From positions 1-40,074 of the forward strand of contig JBBTZX010000034.1 of the NCBI GenBank assembly GCA_038061125.1: a DNA stretch of 40,074 bases, read 5' to 3'. The DNA is from Patescibacteria group bacterium. GTDB lineage: Bacteria > Patescibacteriota > Microgenomatia > Levybacterales > UBA12049. The position numbers and the translations under genes are program-made. The notes beneath the pieces were generated by a model that was not told the DNA's origin, did not search any database, and was given only the letters and a program-made list of their open reading frames with translations. The number at the start of each line of letters is the position of its first letter. The stretch's first letter is position 1. Of this stretch, positions 1,437-7,536 are shown piece after piece.

Positions 1437-2386
1437 TTCTTAATTCTTAAAATAGTCCATCTAATTTTATCCAATAGCTTATATATTTCATAAAAGAATG
1501 AATTAATAACTAAATCAAAACTTCCAATAAATTCAACAAGTTGTCCTCCATAGCCTTCTTTAAACCGATGAAATCCATACCATGGGTCATTTTTATCAGG
1601 ATTAGATCCGAGCGCTCCCCACATATCAAATTTTTTCAAACCAAGTTTTTTGCCAAATTTAATAGCTTCCCACATCATGAGATTTGATGCCATAGTTTCT
1701 CTATAAAGACTTGATGAGGCGCCATAAGGATAATAAAGGGTATCTTTATAAACAAAGAGAATCCAAGCAGTTAATATTTGATTTTTATATTTTGCTAACA
1801 AAAGCCGTGCAGTCAATTTATCGACATTTGAATTTTGAGTTTTTAATGTGTTCCACATCAGCTTATGATAATTTTCTGTGTGTGCATAGAAATTTTGACG
1901 TTTAGTTGTTTCTTTTGTAAGTTTTAGATATTCCTCAAAAGCTTTATCCGAATTATCTTCAATTATTTCAACATTATGTTTTTGAGCTATTTTAATGTTG
2001 TATCGAGTCTTCGGATGCATTGATTTTAATAAATCTTCTTCACTTTTTGTTAAATCCAAAATAAATGTATATTTGGTGAAAAGAGGATGAAAAGAAGGCC
2101 TAATGCCTAAATTTGCCATTTGCCATTTACCATTTGCCATTTGCTTTACGTTTGGTTCAAGTTGGATAAAAATACATTTCTCTTTTTTACCAATCTCACG
2201 AAGTTTAACTACCATTTCTTTTGTTGGCATAGGGCTTTTCGGCAGATATCCTACAGTCCAAGGAGTATGCGGAATTTTATGGATTGTTAGCTGAAATCCC
2301 TTTTCTCTGATAACTTTTAGTCCTGTTTTTTGCCTAAATTCGCCCCATTCTAAAGATTGCATGGGATGAATTGAATTATTGTTCAT
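1433..2386 (-). CDS. FemAB-family peptidoglycan interpeptide-bridge aminoacyltransferase
   Basis: 317 aa. N-terminal QSLEWGEFRQKTG and a C-terminal GFHRFKEGYGG-type segment are typical of the FemABX / lipid II aminoacyltransferase family. Overlaps pcrA stop and start by 4 nt. Confidence 0.7.
   Translation of the reverse strand: MNNNSIHPMQSLEWGEFRQKTGLKVIREKGFQLTIHKIPHTPWTVGYLPKSPMPTKEMVVKLREIGKKEKCIFIQLEPNVKQMANGKWQMANLGIRPSFHPLFTKYTFILDLTKSEEDLLKSMHPKTRYNIKIAQKHNVEIIEDNSDKAFEEYLKLTKETTKRQNFYAHTENYHKLMWNTLKTQNSNVDKLTARLLLAKYKNQILTAWILFVYKDTLYYPYGASSSLYRETMASNLMMWEAIKFGKKLGLKKFDMWGALGSNPDKNDPWYGFHRFKEGYGGQLVEFIGSFDLVINSFFYEIYKLLDKIRWTILRIKK
2112..2144. repeat. Tandem heptanucleotide repeat TTTGCCA x4.7 (one unit TTTACCA) inside the FemAB-like CDS
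   Basis: Read directly: tttgcca tttgcca tttacca tttgcca tttgc. Encodes QMANGKWQMAN on the minus strand. Confidence 0.9.
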
Positions 2387-4254
2387 AGATATTCCGGTAA
2401 ATTTCTATCTAAATTTACAGCATGCAAATTATTCGAAATTACTTCTTCCGGTAGCTCCAAAAGAAATCTGGATATTGTATTGGACGTTCGCTGTCCGAAG
2501 AAAATTCTTCGGGAGGCAAAAGTTAAAAAGAGTTTTTCTTTTGCTCTTGTCATTCCTACATAGCATAAACGTCTTTCTTCCTCCAATTCATTTTTGTCCA
2601 TAAGGCTTCTCTGGTGGGGGAATAATCCTTCTTCCATTCCAACCATAAAAACTATGGGAAACTCAAGTCCTTTAGCCGCATGAAGAGTCATTAAAGTTAT
2701 CGCATCTTTTCTATCGCTATCTTTGGCAGGTTTGTCCGGCATGTATTCTTGTTCAACTAAGGCAATATTTTCCAGAAATTCCGTAAGATTTGGAAAGGCA
2801 ACTGCAACCGAACGAAGTTCTTTAATATTTTCCAGCCTTTCTTTATCTTCCTCCTCGCTTTTATCATATAACGAAAGATAATCAGTTGCTTGTAAGATTT
2901 TATCCAATACCTCAAGAGTTGTAATATTTATTGGATCTTTTATTTTTTCTACCAACTCCAGAAATTTATTCATTCTTCCTTTCCCCAATTTGCCAATCCT
3001 TCTATACGAAACCATATCTTTTGGATTTTCCAAAAATCTAACAAACGCTAGGATATCTTTAATTTCCTTCCTTTCGTAAAACCTAGTACCGCCAACCAGA
3101 ACATAGGGTATGCCTTGATGTAATAATATTTCTTCAATGACTCTGGATTGTGCATTAGTTCTATAAAAAATTGCTACGTCGGTAAATTTCCAGTCAGAGG
3201 TTGGTCCGCCTTTGGCGGAAAAATTTGAGTTTCGAGATTTAAGATTAGCAATCTCTCTAACTATAAATTCTGTTTCATCTTGTTCGTTTCTTGCTTCGTA
3301 GATTATAATATTTTCTCCTTTTGGATTTTTGGTCCAAAGAGATAGGACAGGATGAGTAGTATTATGTGAGATAACCGAAGAAGCAGCATCCAAAATTTTC
3401 TGCGTAGAGCGATAATTCTGTGAAAGAGCAAATGTTTTTGCACCCTTAAAGTCCTCTTTGAATTTCGTAAGATTGGTAAAATCCGCACCCCGCCAACTGT
3501 AAATGCTTTGGGAAAAATCGCCAACAACGCAAATATTTTTCCATTTAAGAGAAAGGGTCTTGGTTAAATAGTATTGTGCATGATTGGTATCCTGATATTC
3601 ATCAACCATAATATATTGAAAGCGATTCTGATATTTCTTAAGGATTTCTTGTTCTTTGTTGAAAAGCTCTATGGTTTTTAGTAAAAGATCATCGAAATCC
3701 AAAGCGTTGTTTTCCGAGAGCTGTTCTTGATATTTAATGTAAATTCTGGCTGCTTGTTCCTGAAAATGTCCTCTTGCATATCTAGGATATTCAAGCGAGG
3801 TTATCAGCTCATTTTTGGCCTGGGAAATTGCGCCTAATATAGAAGAAGGTTTATAATCTTTGGTTGGAATATTTAGTTTTAGCATAGCTTCTTTTATTGC
3901 ATCCAGCTGATCGGTAGTATCGTATATGGCAAATTTTTCCGAAAGGCCGATGTGTTTTCCTTCTATTCTAAGAATTCTGGCACATAAAGAATGAAACGTT
4001 GCGATTAATGGTTTTCCTTTTGTGATAAACTTTCCAATTCTTTCTTTCATTTCATTTGCCGCTTTATTGGTAAACGTTACCATTAATATATTGGACGGAT
4101 CGATACCTTTCTCCTGTATTAAATACACAACTTTATAAGTTAAAACCCTGGTTTTGCCGCTGCCTGCACCCGCAAGTATGACCATCGGACCGTCTGTATT
4201 TATTACTGCTTGTTTTTGTTCCAAATTTAAGTCCTTGAGAAAGGCATCAATCAT
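2383..4254 (-). CDS. pcrA: ATP-dependent DNA helicase PcrA/UvrD (SF1)
   Basis: 623 aa. Walker A AGAGSGKTRVLT, DEYQDT motif II, TLHAAKGLEF and CYVGMTRAKEKL helicase motifs. Confidence 0.9.
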   Translation of the reverse strand: MIDAFLKDLNLEQKQAVINTDGPMVILAGAGSGKTRVLTYKVVYLIQEKGIDPSNILMVTFTNKAANEMKERIGKFITKGKPLIATFHSLCARILRIEGKHIGLSEKFAIYDTTDQLDAIKEAMLKLNIPTKDYKPSSILGAISQAKNELITSLEYPRYARGHFQEQAARIYIKYQEQLSENNALDFDDLLLKTIELFNKEQEILKKYQNRFQYIMVDEYQDTNHAQYYLTKTLSLKWKNICVVGDFSQSIYSWRGADFTNLTKFKEDFKGAKTFALSQNYRSTQKILDAASSVISHNTTHPVLSLWTKNPKGENIIIYEARNEQDETEFIVREIANLKSRNSNFSAKGGPTSDWKFTDVAIFYRTNAQSRVIEEILLHQGIPYVLVGGTRFYERKEIKDILAFVRFLENPKDMVSYRRIGKLGKGRMNKFLELVEKIKDPINITTLEVLDKILQATDYLSLYDKSEEEDKERLENIKELRSVAVAFPNLTEFLENIALVEQEYMPDKPAKDSDRKDAITLMTLHAAKGLEFPIVFMVGMEEGLFPHQRSLMDKNELEEERRLCYVGMTRAKEKLFLTFASRRIFFGQRTSNTISRFLLELPEEVISNNLHAVNLDRNLPEYL

Positions 4255-4260
4255 AAGTAT
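4225..4260 (+). repeat. Left copy of a perfect 36-bp direct repeat (ATTTAAGTCCTTGAGAAAGGCATCAATCATAAGTAT)
   Basis: Identical to 6808-6843. Covers pcrA codons 1-10 plus 6 nt upstream. Confidence 0.95.
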
Positions 4261-4324
4261 TATTATAAGTAAACTACTTTATTAAGTTGAAGGTGTCTTG
4301 TAATTGTAACAGTAGCTTAAGCTC

Positions 4325-4353
4325 TTGACAACCACCTTATAGTGTGATAATAT
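4325..4353 (+). promoter_or_regulatory. Sigma70-like promoter of the DGR target gene
   Basis: TTGACA (4325-4330), 17-nt spacer, TAATAT (4348-4353) preceded by TG at 4345-4346 (extended -10). The in-frame ATG at 4362 follows 8 nt later, so the mRNA is possibly leaderless. Confidence 0.5.
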
Positions 4354-4361
4354 ACGTCATC

Positions 4362-4973
4362 ATGGTGCAGGCTTTAGAAAATTTATCCATACATTATAGA
4401 ATAAAAGGAGATGCTACGAGGGCAGCTCTATATTCAAAGCTAACGGCAGAAGAGCAAGCTAGAGGAACACCTAGAATCCTTTCAGAAGTTCCAGTATTTC
4501 TTCTAGGTATACCGGCTGATGAGGGTCTGACTAACAAGGAAATGGAAGCATTGCTAGATTCTGCAAGAGAAAAAGGTCTTAAGGTCAGCGATTGGGCAAG
4601 AAGAATAATTGGAAGAGCTGATGTTTCCAAAGACCCTCAAGCATCAGAATTGATGGCATTGGATAATCTTACTATGGGACTTCCTGAATACCCAACAACA
4701 ACGCAAGTATGGGAAAAATCGGCTGAATTTGGAAACAAAATTTCCGCGGAACGATTCGTCCGCTTTGCAATAGAGGCTGCGGAAGGAAAGATCCCTGTAG
4801 AAATAGGAAAACCGTTTGTTGCGATTATGGAGCCAGTGGCTGGCACGAGTGGCGGTCCGGGAGTTCTCTGTCTTGGACGCTCCGGGGGTGGATTGTGGTT
4901 GGATGGCCGTTATGCTGATTCTGACGATCAGTGGGGTCCGGTGTTTCGGTTTGTTGTTTCTTCTCGCAAGTAA
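4362..4973 (+). CDS. DGR target (variable) protein with C-terminal variable region
   Basis: The ORF track starts at GTG 4344. I prefer the in-frame ATG 4362 because of the promoter position. The last ~45 codons are the VR. The gene is visibly more GC-rich than its neighbours. No signal peptide or TM helix is visible. Confidence 0.8.
   Translation: MVQALENLSIHYRIKGDATRAALYSKLTAEEQARGTPRILSEVPVFLLGIPADEGLTNKEMEALLDSAREKGLKVSDWARRIIGRADVSKDPQASELMALDNLTMGLPEYPTTTQVWEKSAEFGNKISAERFVRFAIEAAEGKIPVEIGKPFVAIMEPVAGTSGGPGVLCLGRSGGGLWLDGRYADSDDQWGPVFRFVVSSRK
4836..4972 (+). repeat. DGR variable repeat (VR)
   Basis: Gap-free alignment to 5299-5435 (offset 463). All mismatches fall where the TR copy has A. 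Confidence 0.9.
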
Positions 4974-5298
4974 TTAGTTCTTAAATCTTTTGACACTTCG
5001 TTTTTTTTGTTCCTTAGTCTCTTTGATTCTGTTATACTTTGAAATTTCCGTCAAAATTTTTTTGATATACTTTTAATAGAAAGATATTGCTGAACGGCTA
5101 AGGCTTTTCAATATCTCTCCGGCAAATACATATCGGGAATACAAATGGTTAAGGCTTTCTGTAGAGGATTTGTATTTTGTCAAATTAAAAAAGAAAAACT
5201 TGGTGTAATGCGCTGGCTGATTTAAATATCACAAGTAAAATACAGCTTAATCTCTTGTTATTACTAGATAAGCAGTGAATTAGATGGCGTGTTATACG

Positions 5299-5435
5299 AA
5301 AACTGACACGAATGGCAATCCGAAAGTTCTCTATCTTGAACGCAACAAGGATGGATTGTGGTTGAATAGCAATTATGCTAATTCTGACAATCAGTGGAAT
5401 CCGGAAATTCGGTTTGTTGTTTCTTCTCGAAAGAA
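5299..5435 (+). ncRNA. DGR template repeat (TR)
   Basis: The adenine-rich copy of the VR. It has six AAY codons in the target frame at diversified sites. The 5' edge is ambiguous (5299-5303). The A-free 3' block CGGTTTGTTGTTTCTTCTCG is identical in both copies. Confidence 0.9.
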
Positions 5436-5442
5436 GTTCTTT

Positions 5443-5468
5443 CCGCAACTTAACCGTTGCGGTTTTTT
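5443..5468 (+). terminator. Hairpin plus T6 immediately 3' of TR (intrinsic terminator and/or DGR RNA structural element)
   Basis: CCGCAAC (5443-5449) pairs with GTTGCGG (5456-5462), 6-nt loop, then TTTTTT (5463-5468). The avd stop codon lies in the loop on the opposite strand. Confidence 0.6.
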
Positions 5469-5797
5469 ATTGATTCTATCTCTAAACTTTTTCTCCAGCC
5501 GCCAAACATTTTGCCGGTTTCATCAAGCTTTATTGCTATCTCTTCGTATTGCTTATGGGAGATAAGTTTGGCTTCCCAGGTTAAAGAAATCAAGAACTTA
5601 AGAATATCCAGATTAAAGATGCAGTTAGAAATTTTCTCAAGTTTTTTATCCTTACTGCTAAAATAGGCAGTGTAGGTAATTTCCAAAAGATCGAGAAATT
5701 TATTTTCAATTCTGACGCCAAGTGTATAGCGGCTGGTTTTTGGAATATGCGGAACAATAGTAATCCAAATCAAATATCCCTGTTTAATTCTGCTCAA
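5450..5797 (-). CDS. avd: Avd-like four-helix-bundle protein (DGR accessory variability determinant; 23S rRNA IVS protein family)
   Basis: 115 aa, TTG start. PKTSRYTLGVRIE and the C-terminal LDETGKMFGGWRKS match the family pattern (xGKMLxGW). Located between TR and RT but on the opposite strand. Confidence 0.75.
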   Translation of the reverse strand: MSRIKQGYLIWITIVPHIPKTSRYTLGVRIENKFLDLLEITYTAYFSSKDKKLEKISNCIFNLDILKFLISLTWEAKLISHKQYEEIAIKLDETGKMFGGWRKSLEIESIKNRNG

Positions 5798-5812
5798 AAT
5801 AGAACTGCTTTC

Positions 5813-5828
5813 AGAGAGAGAGAGAGAG
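5813..5828. repeat. (AG)8 dinucleotide microsatellite in the divergent avd/RT control region
   Basis: Read directly: agagagagagagagag. Confidence 0.95.
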
Positions 5829-5868
5829 TAAAAGACCGTTTCATATTAAATATAATGATATCATTTCT

Positions 5869-6813
5869 TTGGAAAATTTACTTATTTCATGGCAGGAATT
5901 TTTGAGAGGCAAAAGAGAAAGAAAAGATGTTGCCGAATTTTCACTGCGTTTAATGGACAATATCTTTTTTCTTCGCTTTGAACTATTAAATAAAACATAT
6001 AAACATGGGTTTTATCAGGCTTTTAAAATTAATGATCCGAAACCTCGAGACATCCATAAAGCAAATGTAAGAGATAGATTTCTTCATCACGCAATTTGCA
6101 GAGTTTTATATCCGTATTTTGATAAGAAATTTATCTTTGATTCATATTCCTGCAGATTAGAAAAAGGAACCCATCGAGCAATAAATCGTTTTAGAGATTT
6201 TGCCAGAAAAGCTTCCTGCAATAATGCTCGGACAGCGCGGGTATTGAAATGCGATATTAAAAAATTCTTTGCCAATATTAACCACCGGATTTTACTCAAT
6301 ATTTTAGAGAAAGATATAGAGGATGCTGACGTAATGTGGCTTTTAAAGGAAATTATCGAAAGCTTTTGTACTAAAGGTAAAAAGAGAGTTGGTCTTCCGC
6401 TTGGCAATTTAACCAGTCAATTATTTATTAATATCTATATGAATGAATTTGACCAATTCGTAAAGCGAACACTGAAAGTTAAGTATTATATCCGCTATGC
6501 TGATGATTTTGTGATTTTCCATGAAAGCAAAACATATTTAGAAAAACTTATTCCCAAAATATCGCAATATCTGGAAAAGGAACTAAAACTTTCTCTTCAT
6601 CCCAAAAAAGTCTTTATTAAAACACCTTCTTCAGGTATAGAATTTTTAGGCTGGGTCCATTTTCCTCAGCATCGAATATTAAGAACCGCAACGAAGCGAA
6701 GAATGTTTAGAAATTTAAAGCAAAATAATTCAAAAGAAATACTTGTTTCATATTTAGGTCTACTAAAACACGGAAATACTTATAAATTAGTAAAGAAAAT
6801 ATTAAGGATTTAA
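5869..6813 (+). CDS. DGR-type reverse transcriptase
   Basis: 314 aa, TTG start. KPRDIHKANVRDRFLHHA (RT motifs 1/2), LKCDIKKFF (motif A), LPLGNLTSQLFINIYM ([ILV]GxxxSQ DGR signature), IRYADDFVIF (YxDD). The stop codon lies inside the right 36-bp repeat. Confidence 0.9.
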   Translation: MENLLISWQEFLRGKRERKDVAEFSLRLMDNIFFLRFELLNKTYKHGFYQAFKINDPKPRDIHKANVRDRFLHHAICRVLYPYFDKKFIFDSYSCRLEKGTHRAINRFRDFARKASCNNARTARVLKCDIKKFFANINHRILLNILEKDIEDADVMWLLKEIIESFCTKGKKRVGLPLGNLTSQLFINIYMNEFDQFVKRTLKVKYYIRYADDFVIFHESKTYLEKLIPKISQYLEKELKLSLHPKKVFIKTPSSGIEFLGWVHFPQHRILRTATKRRMFRNLKQNNSKEILVSYLGLLKHGNTYKLVKKILRI

Positions 6814-6843
6814 GTCCTTGAGAAAGGCATCAATCATAAGTAT
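6808..6843 (+). repeat. Right copy of the perfect 36-bp direct repeat
   Basis: Identical to 4225-4260. Carries a decoy pcrA start on the minus strand (MIDAFLKDLN then a stop). Confidence 0.95.
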
Positions 6844-6873
6844 AATAAAAAAGCTGCATTATAATTCTAACAT

Positions 6874-7536
6874 ATGAAAAAGCTTTTTATTGTAGGTAAT
6901 TGGAAGTCAAATAAAACAGCTCTCGAAGCCAAAAACTGGCTTGACGCGTTTAAGGTAAACGATTTAGGAATTACAGACAAAGAAATTATAATTTGTCCTC
7001 CATTTACCCTTTTGTCTTCGATTTCGTTAGAAGTTAGAAGTCAGAAGTTAGAAGCTAGGATTGGCGCGCAGGATATTTCCCCTTTTGATGAGGGTGCATA
7101 TACAGGAGAAATTAATGGGAAGCAAATTAAAGAGTTTGGGGATTATGTTTTGATTGGGCATTCCGAAAGGCGGCAATATCTTAAGGAAGATGACGAAATC
7201 TTAAATAGGAAAGTGATAATGGCTATTAAGTATAATTTGATACCAATTTTTTGCGTACAAGAACGGAATACTGTTATTCCTTCAGGCGTTAGAATAGTAG
7301 CTTACGAACCAATATGGGCAATTGGCACTGGTAATCCGGATACTCCGGATAATGCTGAACAAGTTGCAACAGCGATAAAATCTTCCAATAAAGAAATTAC
7401 ACATATTCTTTATGGCGGAAGCATAACGTCAGCGAATACAAATAGTTTTACAAAAATGTCCCAGATCGATGGGGTTTTGGTAGGAGGCGCAAGTCTAGAT
7501 TCCACGGAATTTTTAAAGATCATTAAAAATGCATAA
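6874..7536 (+). CDS. tpiA: Triosephosphate isomerase (short form)
   Basis: VGNWKSNKT, IGHSERR, AYEPIWAIGTG, LYGGS motifs. TATAAT at 6860-6865 lies 8 nt before the ATG. Confidence 0.9.
   Translation: MKKLFIVGNWKSNKTALEAKNWLDAFKVNDLGITDKEIIICPPFTLLSSISLEVRSQKLEARIGAQDISPFDEGAYTGEINGKQIKEFGDYVLIGHSERRQYLKEDDEILNRKVIMAIKYNLIPIFCVQERNTVIPSGVRIVAYEPIWAIGTGNPDTPDNAEQVATAIKSSNKEITHILYGGSITSANTNSFTKMSQIDGVLVGGASLDSTEFLKIIKNA
7026..7060. repeat. Tandem heptanucleotide repeat GTTAGAA x5 (units 3 and 5 diverged) inside tpiA
   Basis: gttagaa gttagaa gtcagaa gttagaa gctagga. Encodes LEVRSQKLEAR. Confidence 0.9.

Follow-up and report, generated by a model that had tools for sequence, protein, structure and literature searches.

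How the RNA carrying the template repeat (TR) of a diversity-generating retroelement (DGR) is made, and how it is primed for copying, is a pertinent question at a locus where the avd gene, on the opposite strand, fills the whole interval between the TR and the reverse transcriptase (RT) gene, and where a GC-rich hairpin followed by a run of six T residues (T6) abuts the TR. Such a locus is present in the 40,074-nt stretch of the Patescibacteria contig JBBTZX010000034.1 that we analysed here (the window; all coordinates are window positions). The original prediction for this locus, made from the letters of the window, described the hairpin, the T6 tract, an avd stop codon within the hairpin loop, a TATAAT hexamer ahead of the RT and the antisense avd gene, and all of these were found at their places. 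Here we propose that the DGR RNA is likely to be a self-contained transcript of about 390 nt which is made from its own promoter and ends at the hairpin, and in which the functional "spacer" elements lie upstream of the TR in a circularly permuted order. Bacteria of the candidate phyla radiation (CPR) and DPANN archaea hold a large share of the known DGRs. A self-contained RNA of this size would be a concrete and directly testable model for CPR-type DGRs, and would also define a minimal RNA for engineering them.

The window contains one DGR, in the order variable repeat (VR)-TR-(avd)-RT, with an adenine-biased TR/VR pair, an RT of the DGR clade and an Avd protein. A second TR, VR, RT or avd was sought in the entire 40-kb window and none was found. 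For comparison, 80 related loci (L001-L080) with 60-71% RT identity were collected by scanning one genome per species with the RT protein of the window. Nearly all of these relatives are Patescibacteria metagenome-assembled genomes (MAGs); L002, L007, L028 and L034 are labelled as Gammaproteobacteria or Bacteroidota MAGs, which are likely binning or labelling errors. The position of avd could be assessed in the 73 relatives with DNA upstream of the RT, and in every one of them avd was antisense and immediately upstream of the RT. A TR/VR pair was detected in 57 relatives, and in all 57 the TR was on the RT strand and ended beside the avd stop codon, with overlap in a few. This layout, TR-(avd)-RT, has been named Architecture B3 and represents 90% of the CPR collection of Wu et al., being nearly absent elsewhere (Wu et al. 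2018, NAR 46:11, PMC5758913; based on Paul et al. 2017). If the parts of a DGR lie on different strands, two or more transcription units are required (Wu et al. 2018, PMC5758913). The TR, the reverse-strand avd and the RT of the window occupy the positions that define Architecture B3. Since the layout is shared by all 73 relatives and by the published B3 class, the locus is an ordinary and typical member of the CPR/Patescibacteria DGR clade. It had been described as non-canonical; the arrangement does differ from that of Bordetella phage BPP-1, yet the gene order of the relatives places it in the dominant published CPR layout.

The stem-loop next to the TR (stem 5443-5449/5456-5462, loop TTAACC) has 7 bp, of which 5 are G-C pairs, and it starts 6-7 nt beyond the end of TR/VR homology, with the avd stop codon (TAA, + strand 5450-5452) inside its loop. 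Its free energy is -11 kcal/mol as compared to -2.6 ± 1.5 kcal/mol for shuffled sequences, none of 200 shuffles being as good. Together with T6 it gives the sequence signature of an intrinsic terminator, with a U-tract directly behind a GC-rich stem-loop on the transcribed strand, and it is the top terminator-like site within the first 20 kb of the window. With a relaxed finder, a hairpin followed by T4-6 (usually TTTTnTTTT) and starting 0-19 nt past the TR was found in about 53-55 of 58 loci. With strict criteria, a terminator-like hairpin was found within 60 nt past the TR in 35 of the 58 loci, as compared to a rate of 0.4% for the controls, which were dinucleotide shuffles and windows taken at random from these loci, and no such hairpin was found in the 60 nt past the VR in any of the 58. 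The likeness to an intrinsic terminator, which had been pointed out for the window, is thus borne out across the clade, with the reservation that the control rate refers to the strict criteria and the higher count to the relaxed ones.

Covariation of the stem among homologous elements had been proposed as a check, and it was found. The 53 hairpins carry 29 distinct 6-nt arms, with compensatory pair types at each stem position (position 2, CG in 22 and TA in 30; position 5, CG in 23, GC in 12, AT in 8 and TA in 5), a median stem of 8 bp and a median loop of 6 nt. In 32 loci the avd stop codon falls within the hairpin, in 18 it comes before the hairpin and in 3 it is in or past the T-tract, and the Pfam Avd domain ends about 11 residues short of the C-terminus. 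A stop codon that wanders while the hairpin stays fixed indicates that the RNA element, and not the Avd tail, seems to be the constrained feature. As judged from sequence comparison, the hairpin and its T-run are a conserved element selected for structure. The 3' arm of the hairpin and the T-tract (5455-5470) are also 88% complementary, as a 16-nt inverted repeat, to 6678-6693 in the RT gene, which is probably a chance match.

A conserved hairpin at this position could instead serve avd, as a terminator or 3'-end stabiliser of the avd mRNA, its adjacency to the TR being a result of tight packing. The avd stop codon is in or beside the hairpin in most loci, and on the minus strand the stem is just as well folded (-12.3 kcal/mol). 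However, the minus-strand stem is followed by purine-rich or A-rich sequence and has no U-tract, and a strict terminator-like hairpin was found on this strand in just 1 of the 58 loci. Further, the T-tract lies on the TR strand, and the distance of the hairpin to the TR and linker is fixed, whereas the avd stop codon drifts. We consider it unlikely that the hairpin exists for avd, although it may have a secondary role in stabilising the 3' end of avd mRNA.

The 325-nt interval between VR and TR holds a candidate promoter and a leader. At least 38 of the 58 loci have an extended -10 box (TGnTAnnnT) at 228-254 nt upstream of the TR, usually with a T-run ahead of it, the chance expectation being 0.033 per 27-nt window; from the box in the window, the DGR RNA is predicted to start near 5078. 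The structure of the leader was predicted with RNAalifold and pair counts in 16 close loci, and partners slid by 1-3 columns served as controls. In the leader, 92.7% of cells were paired as compared to 42-50% in the slid controls, and 50 pairs showed compensatory changes as compared to 18-24; none of 500 shuffles reached the observed values. Two stem domains (P1 and P2) are followed by a long-range helix, P3, which encloses the stem-loops P3a and P3b with an A-rich single strand between them. Among 53 clade-wide loci the pairs of P3 were found to be exchanged (UA 23 and CG 23; GC 22 and AU 19; GC 21 and AU 21), and the covariation of P3a and P3b was also found in the realigned core of these loci. 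The RNA of the window, folded alone, refolds into P1, P2 and P3. Rfam 15, which includes the RT-associated motifs, gave no relevant match in 4200-6900 at E <= 10, and at the gathering score only tRNAs were found in 16 related loci. The RT-associated motifs are numbered RT-1 to RT-19, RT-10 being the BPP-1 spacer (Weinberg et al. 2017, PMC5737381).

The leader also appears to pair with the linker that joins TR and hairpin, forming a candidate primer duplex. In the window, AAAGAA (5190-5195) can pair with TTCTTT (5437-5442), and the A-rich strand of the leader sits just 5' of an invariant (A)CTTGG. Cognate leader/linker duplexes have a mean free energy of -5.28 kcal/mol as compared to -3.39 kcal/mol for non-cognate ones, and none of 20,000 permutations was as good. 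The compensatory leader/linker sets include AAATGAAGA/TCTTCATTT, AAATGAAAA/TTTTCATTT, AAATAAAGA/TCTTTATTT, AATGAAGC/GCTTCATT, AACGAAGA/TCTTCGTT and AAGAAAATA/TATTTTCTT, as well as AAACAGA/TCTGTTT and AAATACA/TGTATTT. These data make the leader-linker helix probable. RNAalifold also proposed pairing of the leader A-tract (5191-5195) to the U-tract (5463-5467); this helix showed no two-sided changes and no cognate advantage (-3.81 vs -3.80 kcal/mol), and the leader-linker pairing was preferred. The promoter, the covarying leader, the leader-linker pairing and the terminator-shaped 3' end seem, provisionally, to be absent from published descriptions.

The DGR RNA of BPP-1 comprises the avd 3' end, the TR and a 140-nt spacer (Handa et al. 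2018, NAR), and both the primer and the elements that bind the RT come from this spacer, downstream of the TR (Handa et al., bioRxiv 10.1101/2023.10.23.563531). If the RNA of the window were built in the same manner, the hairpin would only bind Avd, the RNA would continue antisense to avd, maybe all the way from the TR to the RT, and priming would occur from a spacer embedded in avd. Besides the precedent of BPP-1, it speaks for such read-through that the RT of the window has neither a convincing promoter of its own nor a canonical start codon. We looked at synonymous sites in 69 codon-aligned avd genes, comparing the observed codon homozygosity at conserved residues with the gene-wide expectation. 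No excess of synonymous-codon conservation was found along the gene save in the final ~5 codons; these overlap with the hairpin and T-tract and provide an internal positive control (Asn 1.00 vs 0.51; Arg 0.89 vs 0.21). Thus there is no sign of a conserved RNA element antisense in avd outside these codons, and BPP-1-type downstream primer, stop-duplex and RT-binding elements, looked for antisense to avd, gave no conserved signal beyond the hairpin and T-tract. The functional long TR-to-RT transcript, which had been offered as one of two possibilities, is not favoured by this result. Moreover, identity among Avd proteins falls to 30%, yet the leader remains conserved and co-varies; P3 (12 bp, with massive covariation) joins the 40 nt upstream of the TR to the leader and not to downstream sequence; the strand that co-varies with the linker 3' of the TR is located in the leader; and a U-tract is conserved after the hairpin. 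We regard read-through into avd as improbable.

The remaining source of TR RNA that had been suggested is read-through of the target gene. L002, L006 and L038 carry the VR on the other strand, downstream of the RT, while promoter, leader, TR, hairpin, avd and RT are unchanged, so that target-gene read-through is impossible there and cannot be the general source of TR RNA. It is true that no strict terminator-like site follows the VR within 60 nt in the 58 loci (within 205 nt, in 4 of 58) and that nothing obvious in the window stops a transcript from 4362 short of the TR, but with the leader-TR-hairpin unit kept in those three loci, an extended -10 box positionally conserved ahead of the leader and, by eye, a hairpin between the VR-flank repeats and the promoter in many loci, it is a shade less probable still that such read-through is the sole source and the conserved block upstream of the TR a 3' untranslated element of the target; it may add a longer isoform, yet it is not required.

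We therefore return to a DGR RNA with its own ends. That the TR RNA may be made separately from the RT mRNA was part of the original prediction, and this fits the conserved extended -10 box about 240 nt upstream of the TR and the terminator-shaped 3' end. The locus would then have at least three transcription units, namely the target gene, the non-coding DGR RNA of about 390 nt, and the divergent avd and RT. The DGR RNA would start at the extended -10 promoter, proceed via a leader of about 220 nt, in which P1 and P2 precede the P3 domain closing against the TR, through the TR and linker, and end at the stem-loop and U-tract (coordinates in Table 1). The stem-loop would most likely act as an intrinsic terminator that keeps the TR transcript out of the convergent avd gene. 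At the position of the Avd-binding stem-loop of BPP-1 (spacer, Sp, positions 3-33), it is probably also a 3' protein-binding handle, which makes the earlier suggestion of an RNA element used by the RT-Avd complex plausible. The A-rich strand of the leader would pair with the linker 3' of the TR, thereby presenting the priming nucleotide, and the P3 helix at the TR 5' end would halt cDNA synthesis. The ends of the RNA, its termination, the binding of Avd and priming from the leader are what we infer from these sequence comparisons; the gene order, the conservation, the covariation and the promoter motif were observed in them.

Several observations weigh against this reading. The leader-linker duplex of the window is just 6 bp long (-3.6 kcal/mol), both strands are of low complexity (A-rich against T-rich), and the permutation statistics ignore phylogeny. 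In nearly all loci the T-tract encodes a Lys/Asn-rich C-terminal tail of Avd, and its conservation is thus partly confounded with coding. Intrinsic terminators are barely enriched in this genome (17 found vs 11.3 ± 4.4 expected; 20 vs 14.4 ± 3.9). Both proposed ends (the start near 5078 and the end near 5468), as well as termination itself, are predictions. Finally, Handa et al. report putative stop duplexes that use 100 nt downstream of the TR in DGRs including CPR members.

Table 1. Coordinates of the DGR and its flanking features in the window.
Feature	Position	Strand	Evidence or remarks
Direct repeat, left copy / right copy	4225-4268 / 6808-6851	+	44 nt, 93% identity, 36-nt exact core
Target gene	4362-4973	+	Open reading frame (ORF) list; VR is its 3' end; protein ends in SSRK, then stop
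VR	4840-4973	+	79% identical to TR, offset 463 nt
VR 3' flank, ~8-nt periodic CTTnG units	4974-5050	+	CTTTTGAC ACTTCG ... CTCTTTGA TTCTGTTA TACTTTGA
Predicted extended -10 promoter of DGR RNA	5063-5071	+	TGaTATACT (TGATATACT), T-run before
Structured 5' leader	5078-5298	+	Covariation
Leader P1	5079-5119	+	RNAalifold
Leader P2	5121-5181	+	RNAalifold
A-rich leader strand with invariant CTTGG, proposed primer strand	5186-5202	+	Covariation with linker
Leader P3	5203-5214 paired with 5286-5297	+	12 bp; 3' strand abuts TR 5' end
Leader P3a stem-loop	5218-5231	+	Co-varies
Leader A-rich single strand	5232-5240	+	Consensus AAATAAAATACAG
Leader P3b stem-loop	5241-5277	+	Co-varies
TR	5299-5435 (5303-5436 by VR homology)	+	VR homology; sole TR in 40-kb window
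TR-hairpin linker GTTCTTT, proposed template strand of primer duplex	5436-5442	+	Covariation with leader
GC-rich stem-loop, predicted intrinsic terminator hairpin	5443-5462	+	Conserved; z = -5.6
T6 tract (terminator U-tract)	5463-5468	+	7-8 T in 9 nt past stem in 49/53 loci
avd	5450-5797	-	Pfam bAvd PF22296, E 1.7e-16, 61 bits vs cut-off 40
Divergent avd/RT control region	5798-5868	.	(AG)8 repeat 5813-5828
DGR reverse transcriptase	5869-6813	+	RVT_1 E 5e-23; LGNLTSQ and YADD

The gene that converges on the DGR RNA had been taken for avd from its translation, and a profile search confirmed that it is Avd-like (Table 1); an exact look-up of the Avd protein returned no record. The motifs [ILV]GxxxSQ in motif 4 and YxDD are diagnostic of DGR-clade RTs, and both have their counterparts in the RT of the window. 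By frame analysis, the conserved N-terminal coding region of this RT begins at about 5842, upstream of the listed TTG start at 5869, the frame ahead of the TTG encoding HIKYNDIIS. No ATG, GTG or TTG is present in frame between the stop at 5800 and this TTG. The TATAAT hexamer that had been proposed as the promoter of the RT is present at 5851-5856, but a promoter role is not supported. The hexamer corresponds to the Tyr-Asn codons of a conserved motif, H-x-Y-[DN]-x-I-I-S, which is clearly coding in relatives with an upstream ATG, and a TATAAT within 30 nt upstream of the aligned RT start was found in just 11 of the 80 relatives. Most likely, it represents mere Tyr-Asn codons.

A purine tract separates the divergent starts of avd and RT in 71 of the 73 loci, being (GA)4-18 in the subgroup of the window and G6-13 in others. 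It may act as a slippage-prone switch, form an H-DNA element or serve as a Shine-Dalgarno-like element. With one GA unit less, ATG 5747 would come in frame with the RT and, on the other strand, ATG 5844 in frame with avd; at present, the frame of ATG 5844 ends at a TGA overlapping the avd TTG start. The (GA)n repeat is open in every frame; of 18 (GA)n loci whose upstream frame is open, only about 3 are in frame with that ATG, and the upstream peptide is simply the antisense of conserved Avd codons. In poly-G loci with an upstream RT ATG, the ATG is 4-76 nt (mostly 13-31 nt) past the tract, often after a TAnnnT hexamer, and the RT mRNA of these loci looks leaderless. In loci whose avd TTG start comes after the opposite-strand poly-C, the two are usually 5-10 nt apart.

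A wider proposal joins these features to the RNA. The abundant B3 DGRs may use a permuted RNA, with the priming nucleotide, a stop-duplex strand and the RT-binding elements in the leader, a promoter of its own and a terminator that is also the Avd-binding stem-loop; and, at the same time, the (GA)n or poly-G tract in the shared control region of 60-90 nt may gate avd and RT, thereby making hypermutation phase-variable. We put this forward tentatively, giving the two parts together somewhat less than an even chance of being right.

The target ORF of 203-209 aa has a called length of 203 aa on L084, a near-identical contig from ENA (ERZ1292645, Hainich H14), and its protein showed no Pfam family above cut-off. 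A promoter scan revealed a near-consensus, TG-extended promoter (TTGACA-17-TAATAT) at 4325-4353. Its -10 box ends 8 nt ahead of ATG 4362, and the target mRNA is thus probably leaderless. Between TR and VR, 30 of 31 mismatches are on TR adenines, and 57 related loci share this pattern. The last three TR/VR differences (5430, 5434 and 5436) are probably not due to mutagenesis, since the 3' ends (5428-5436 in the TR, 4965-4973 in the VR) show the same CGAAA versus CGCAA difference in at least 24 loci, and in at least 26 of 58 when CGCTA is included. Both codons encode Arg, and the VR nearly always ends in CGCAAG/C followed by the stop codon. This looks like a fixed difference of the IMH/IMH* type (IMH, initiation of mutagenic homing). 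At the level of assembled contigs, the VR was identical in three other assemblies, from ENA and Logan, that carry the same RT. Two of them were identical throughout, L084 differed at 2 of 5,112 nt, at 3260 and 4765, neither of them in the VR, and no difference was found among the three in VR, (GA)n tract or hairpin.

Past the VR stop codon, the 58 loci carry an array of 3-7 tandem CTTnG units of about 8 nt, the commonest being CTTTGA. In the 90 nt past the VR, CTT was counted 289 times as compared to 151 ± 9 in shuffles, and the commonest spacings are 8 nt (88 cases) and 7 nt (33 cases). Loci with the VR downstream of the RT also have the array next to their VR, which makes it a feature of the target site, and it may be a counterpart of the hairpin flanking the IMH in BPP-1.

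The entire 2.6-kb cassette is bracketed by the 44-nt direct repeat, and Logan unitigs break exactly there. The repeat carries the first 10 codons and the upstream region of a UvrD-like helicase gene (2383-4254, minus strand) as well as a strong + strand promoter (TTGAGA-17-TATAAT), and the RT stop codon lies within its right copy. Similar cassette-flanking repeats were found in L027 (47 nt, 83%) and L029 (26 nt). Such flanking repeats suggest that the cassette was inserted with target duplication.

Comparison with known systems begins with the class to which the locus belongs. In the CPR/DPANN B3 DGRs (PMC5758913), order and strands are identical (target with VR, TR, reverse-strand avd, RT) and the host group, Patescibacteria MAGs from groundwater, is shared. 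There is no difference in gene layout, the locus being a member of the class.

With BPP-1, the locus shares Avd, a DGR-type RT and adenine-specific TR/VR differences, and the likeness extends to the RNA. The BPP-1 RNA begins, at the 5' end, with one stop-duplex strand, upstream of the TR; then come the TR, which has the template strand of the primer duplex at its 3' end, the Avd-binding stem-loop, the primer strand ending in the priming A56, two nucleotides, and the second stop-duplex strand, Sp 59-70; a short stem-loop, unpaired adenosines, a single-stranded "thumb ring" and a long RT-binding stem-loop complete it (bioRxiv 10.1101/2023.10.23.563531). The predicted order here is P1, P2, the primer-like strand, about 5 nt, the 5' strand of P3, P3a, the A-rich strand, P3b, the 3' strand of P3, the TR, the linker, the stem-loop and the U-tract. 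Opening the BPP-1 order between the Avd-binding stem-loop and the primer strand, and joining its old end to its old start, yields the order seen here, with P1 and P2 as extra elements; as far as the predicted elements go, the connectivity is that of BPP-1 in circular permutation. In both, a stem-loop is located directly 3' of the template strand (that of BPP-1 binds Avd; here structure and position are conserved and the stem-loop would bind Avd by analogy), a primer strand (here a proposed one) is paired to the template's 3' end and is contiguous with a duplex strand whose partner abuts the TR 5' end (cPRT Stop), and a short stem-loop and an A-rich single strand come next. By this analogy, matching elements may do equal jobs in the two RNAs. 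In contrast, all accessory elements of BPP-1 but one stop-duplex strand lie 3' of the TR, whereas here they lie 5'; avd, TR and brt of BPP-1 are co-directional, whereas avd is antisense here; the RNA here apparently ends past the stem-loop at the U-tract; and the sequences are unrelated, the Rfam motif RT-10 having no match here.

A TR that is transcribed separately from the RT has a precedent in Trichodesmium erythraeum, where it is an abundant and discrete non-coding RNA (main species 265 nt) with its own promoter (Pfreundt et al. 2014, Sci Rep 4:6187, PMC4143802). The TR RNA of that organism was demonstrated by mapping of transcription start sites and northern blots, whereas the RNA described here is predicted from sequence. 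A more distant likeness is to the msr-msd RNA of retrons. Although retrons have an RT of another clade, produce multicopy single-stranded DNA, act in defence and possess neither a VR/TR pair nor Avd, their RNA resembles the one proposed here in being a self-contained, structured non-coding RNA with the priming nucleotide 5' of the template, in which pairing of the 5' and 3' segments brings the template 3' end to the priming nucleotide.

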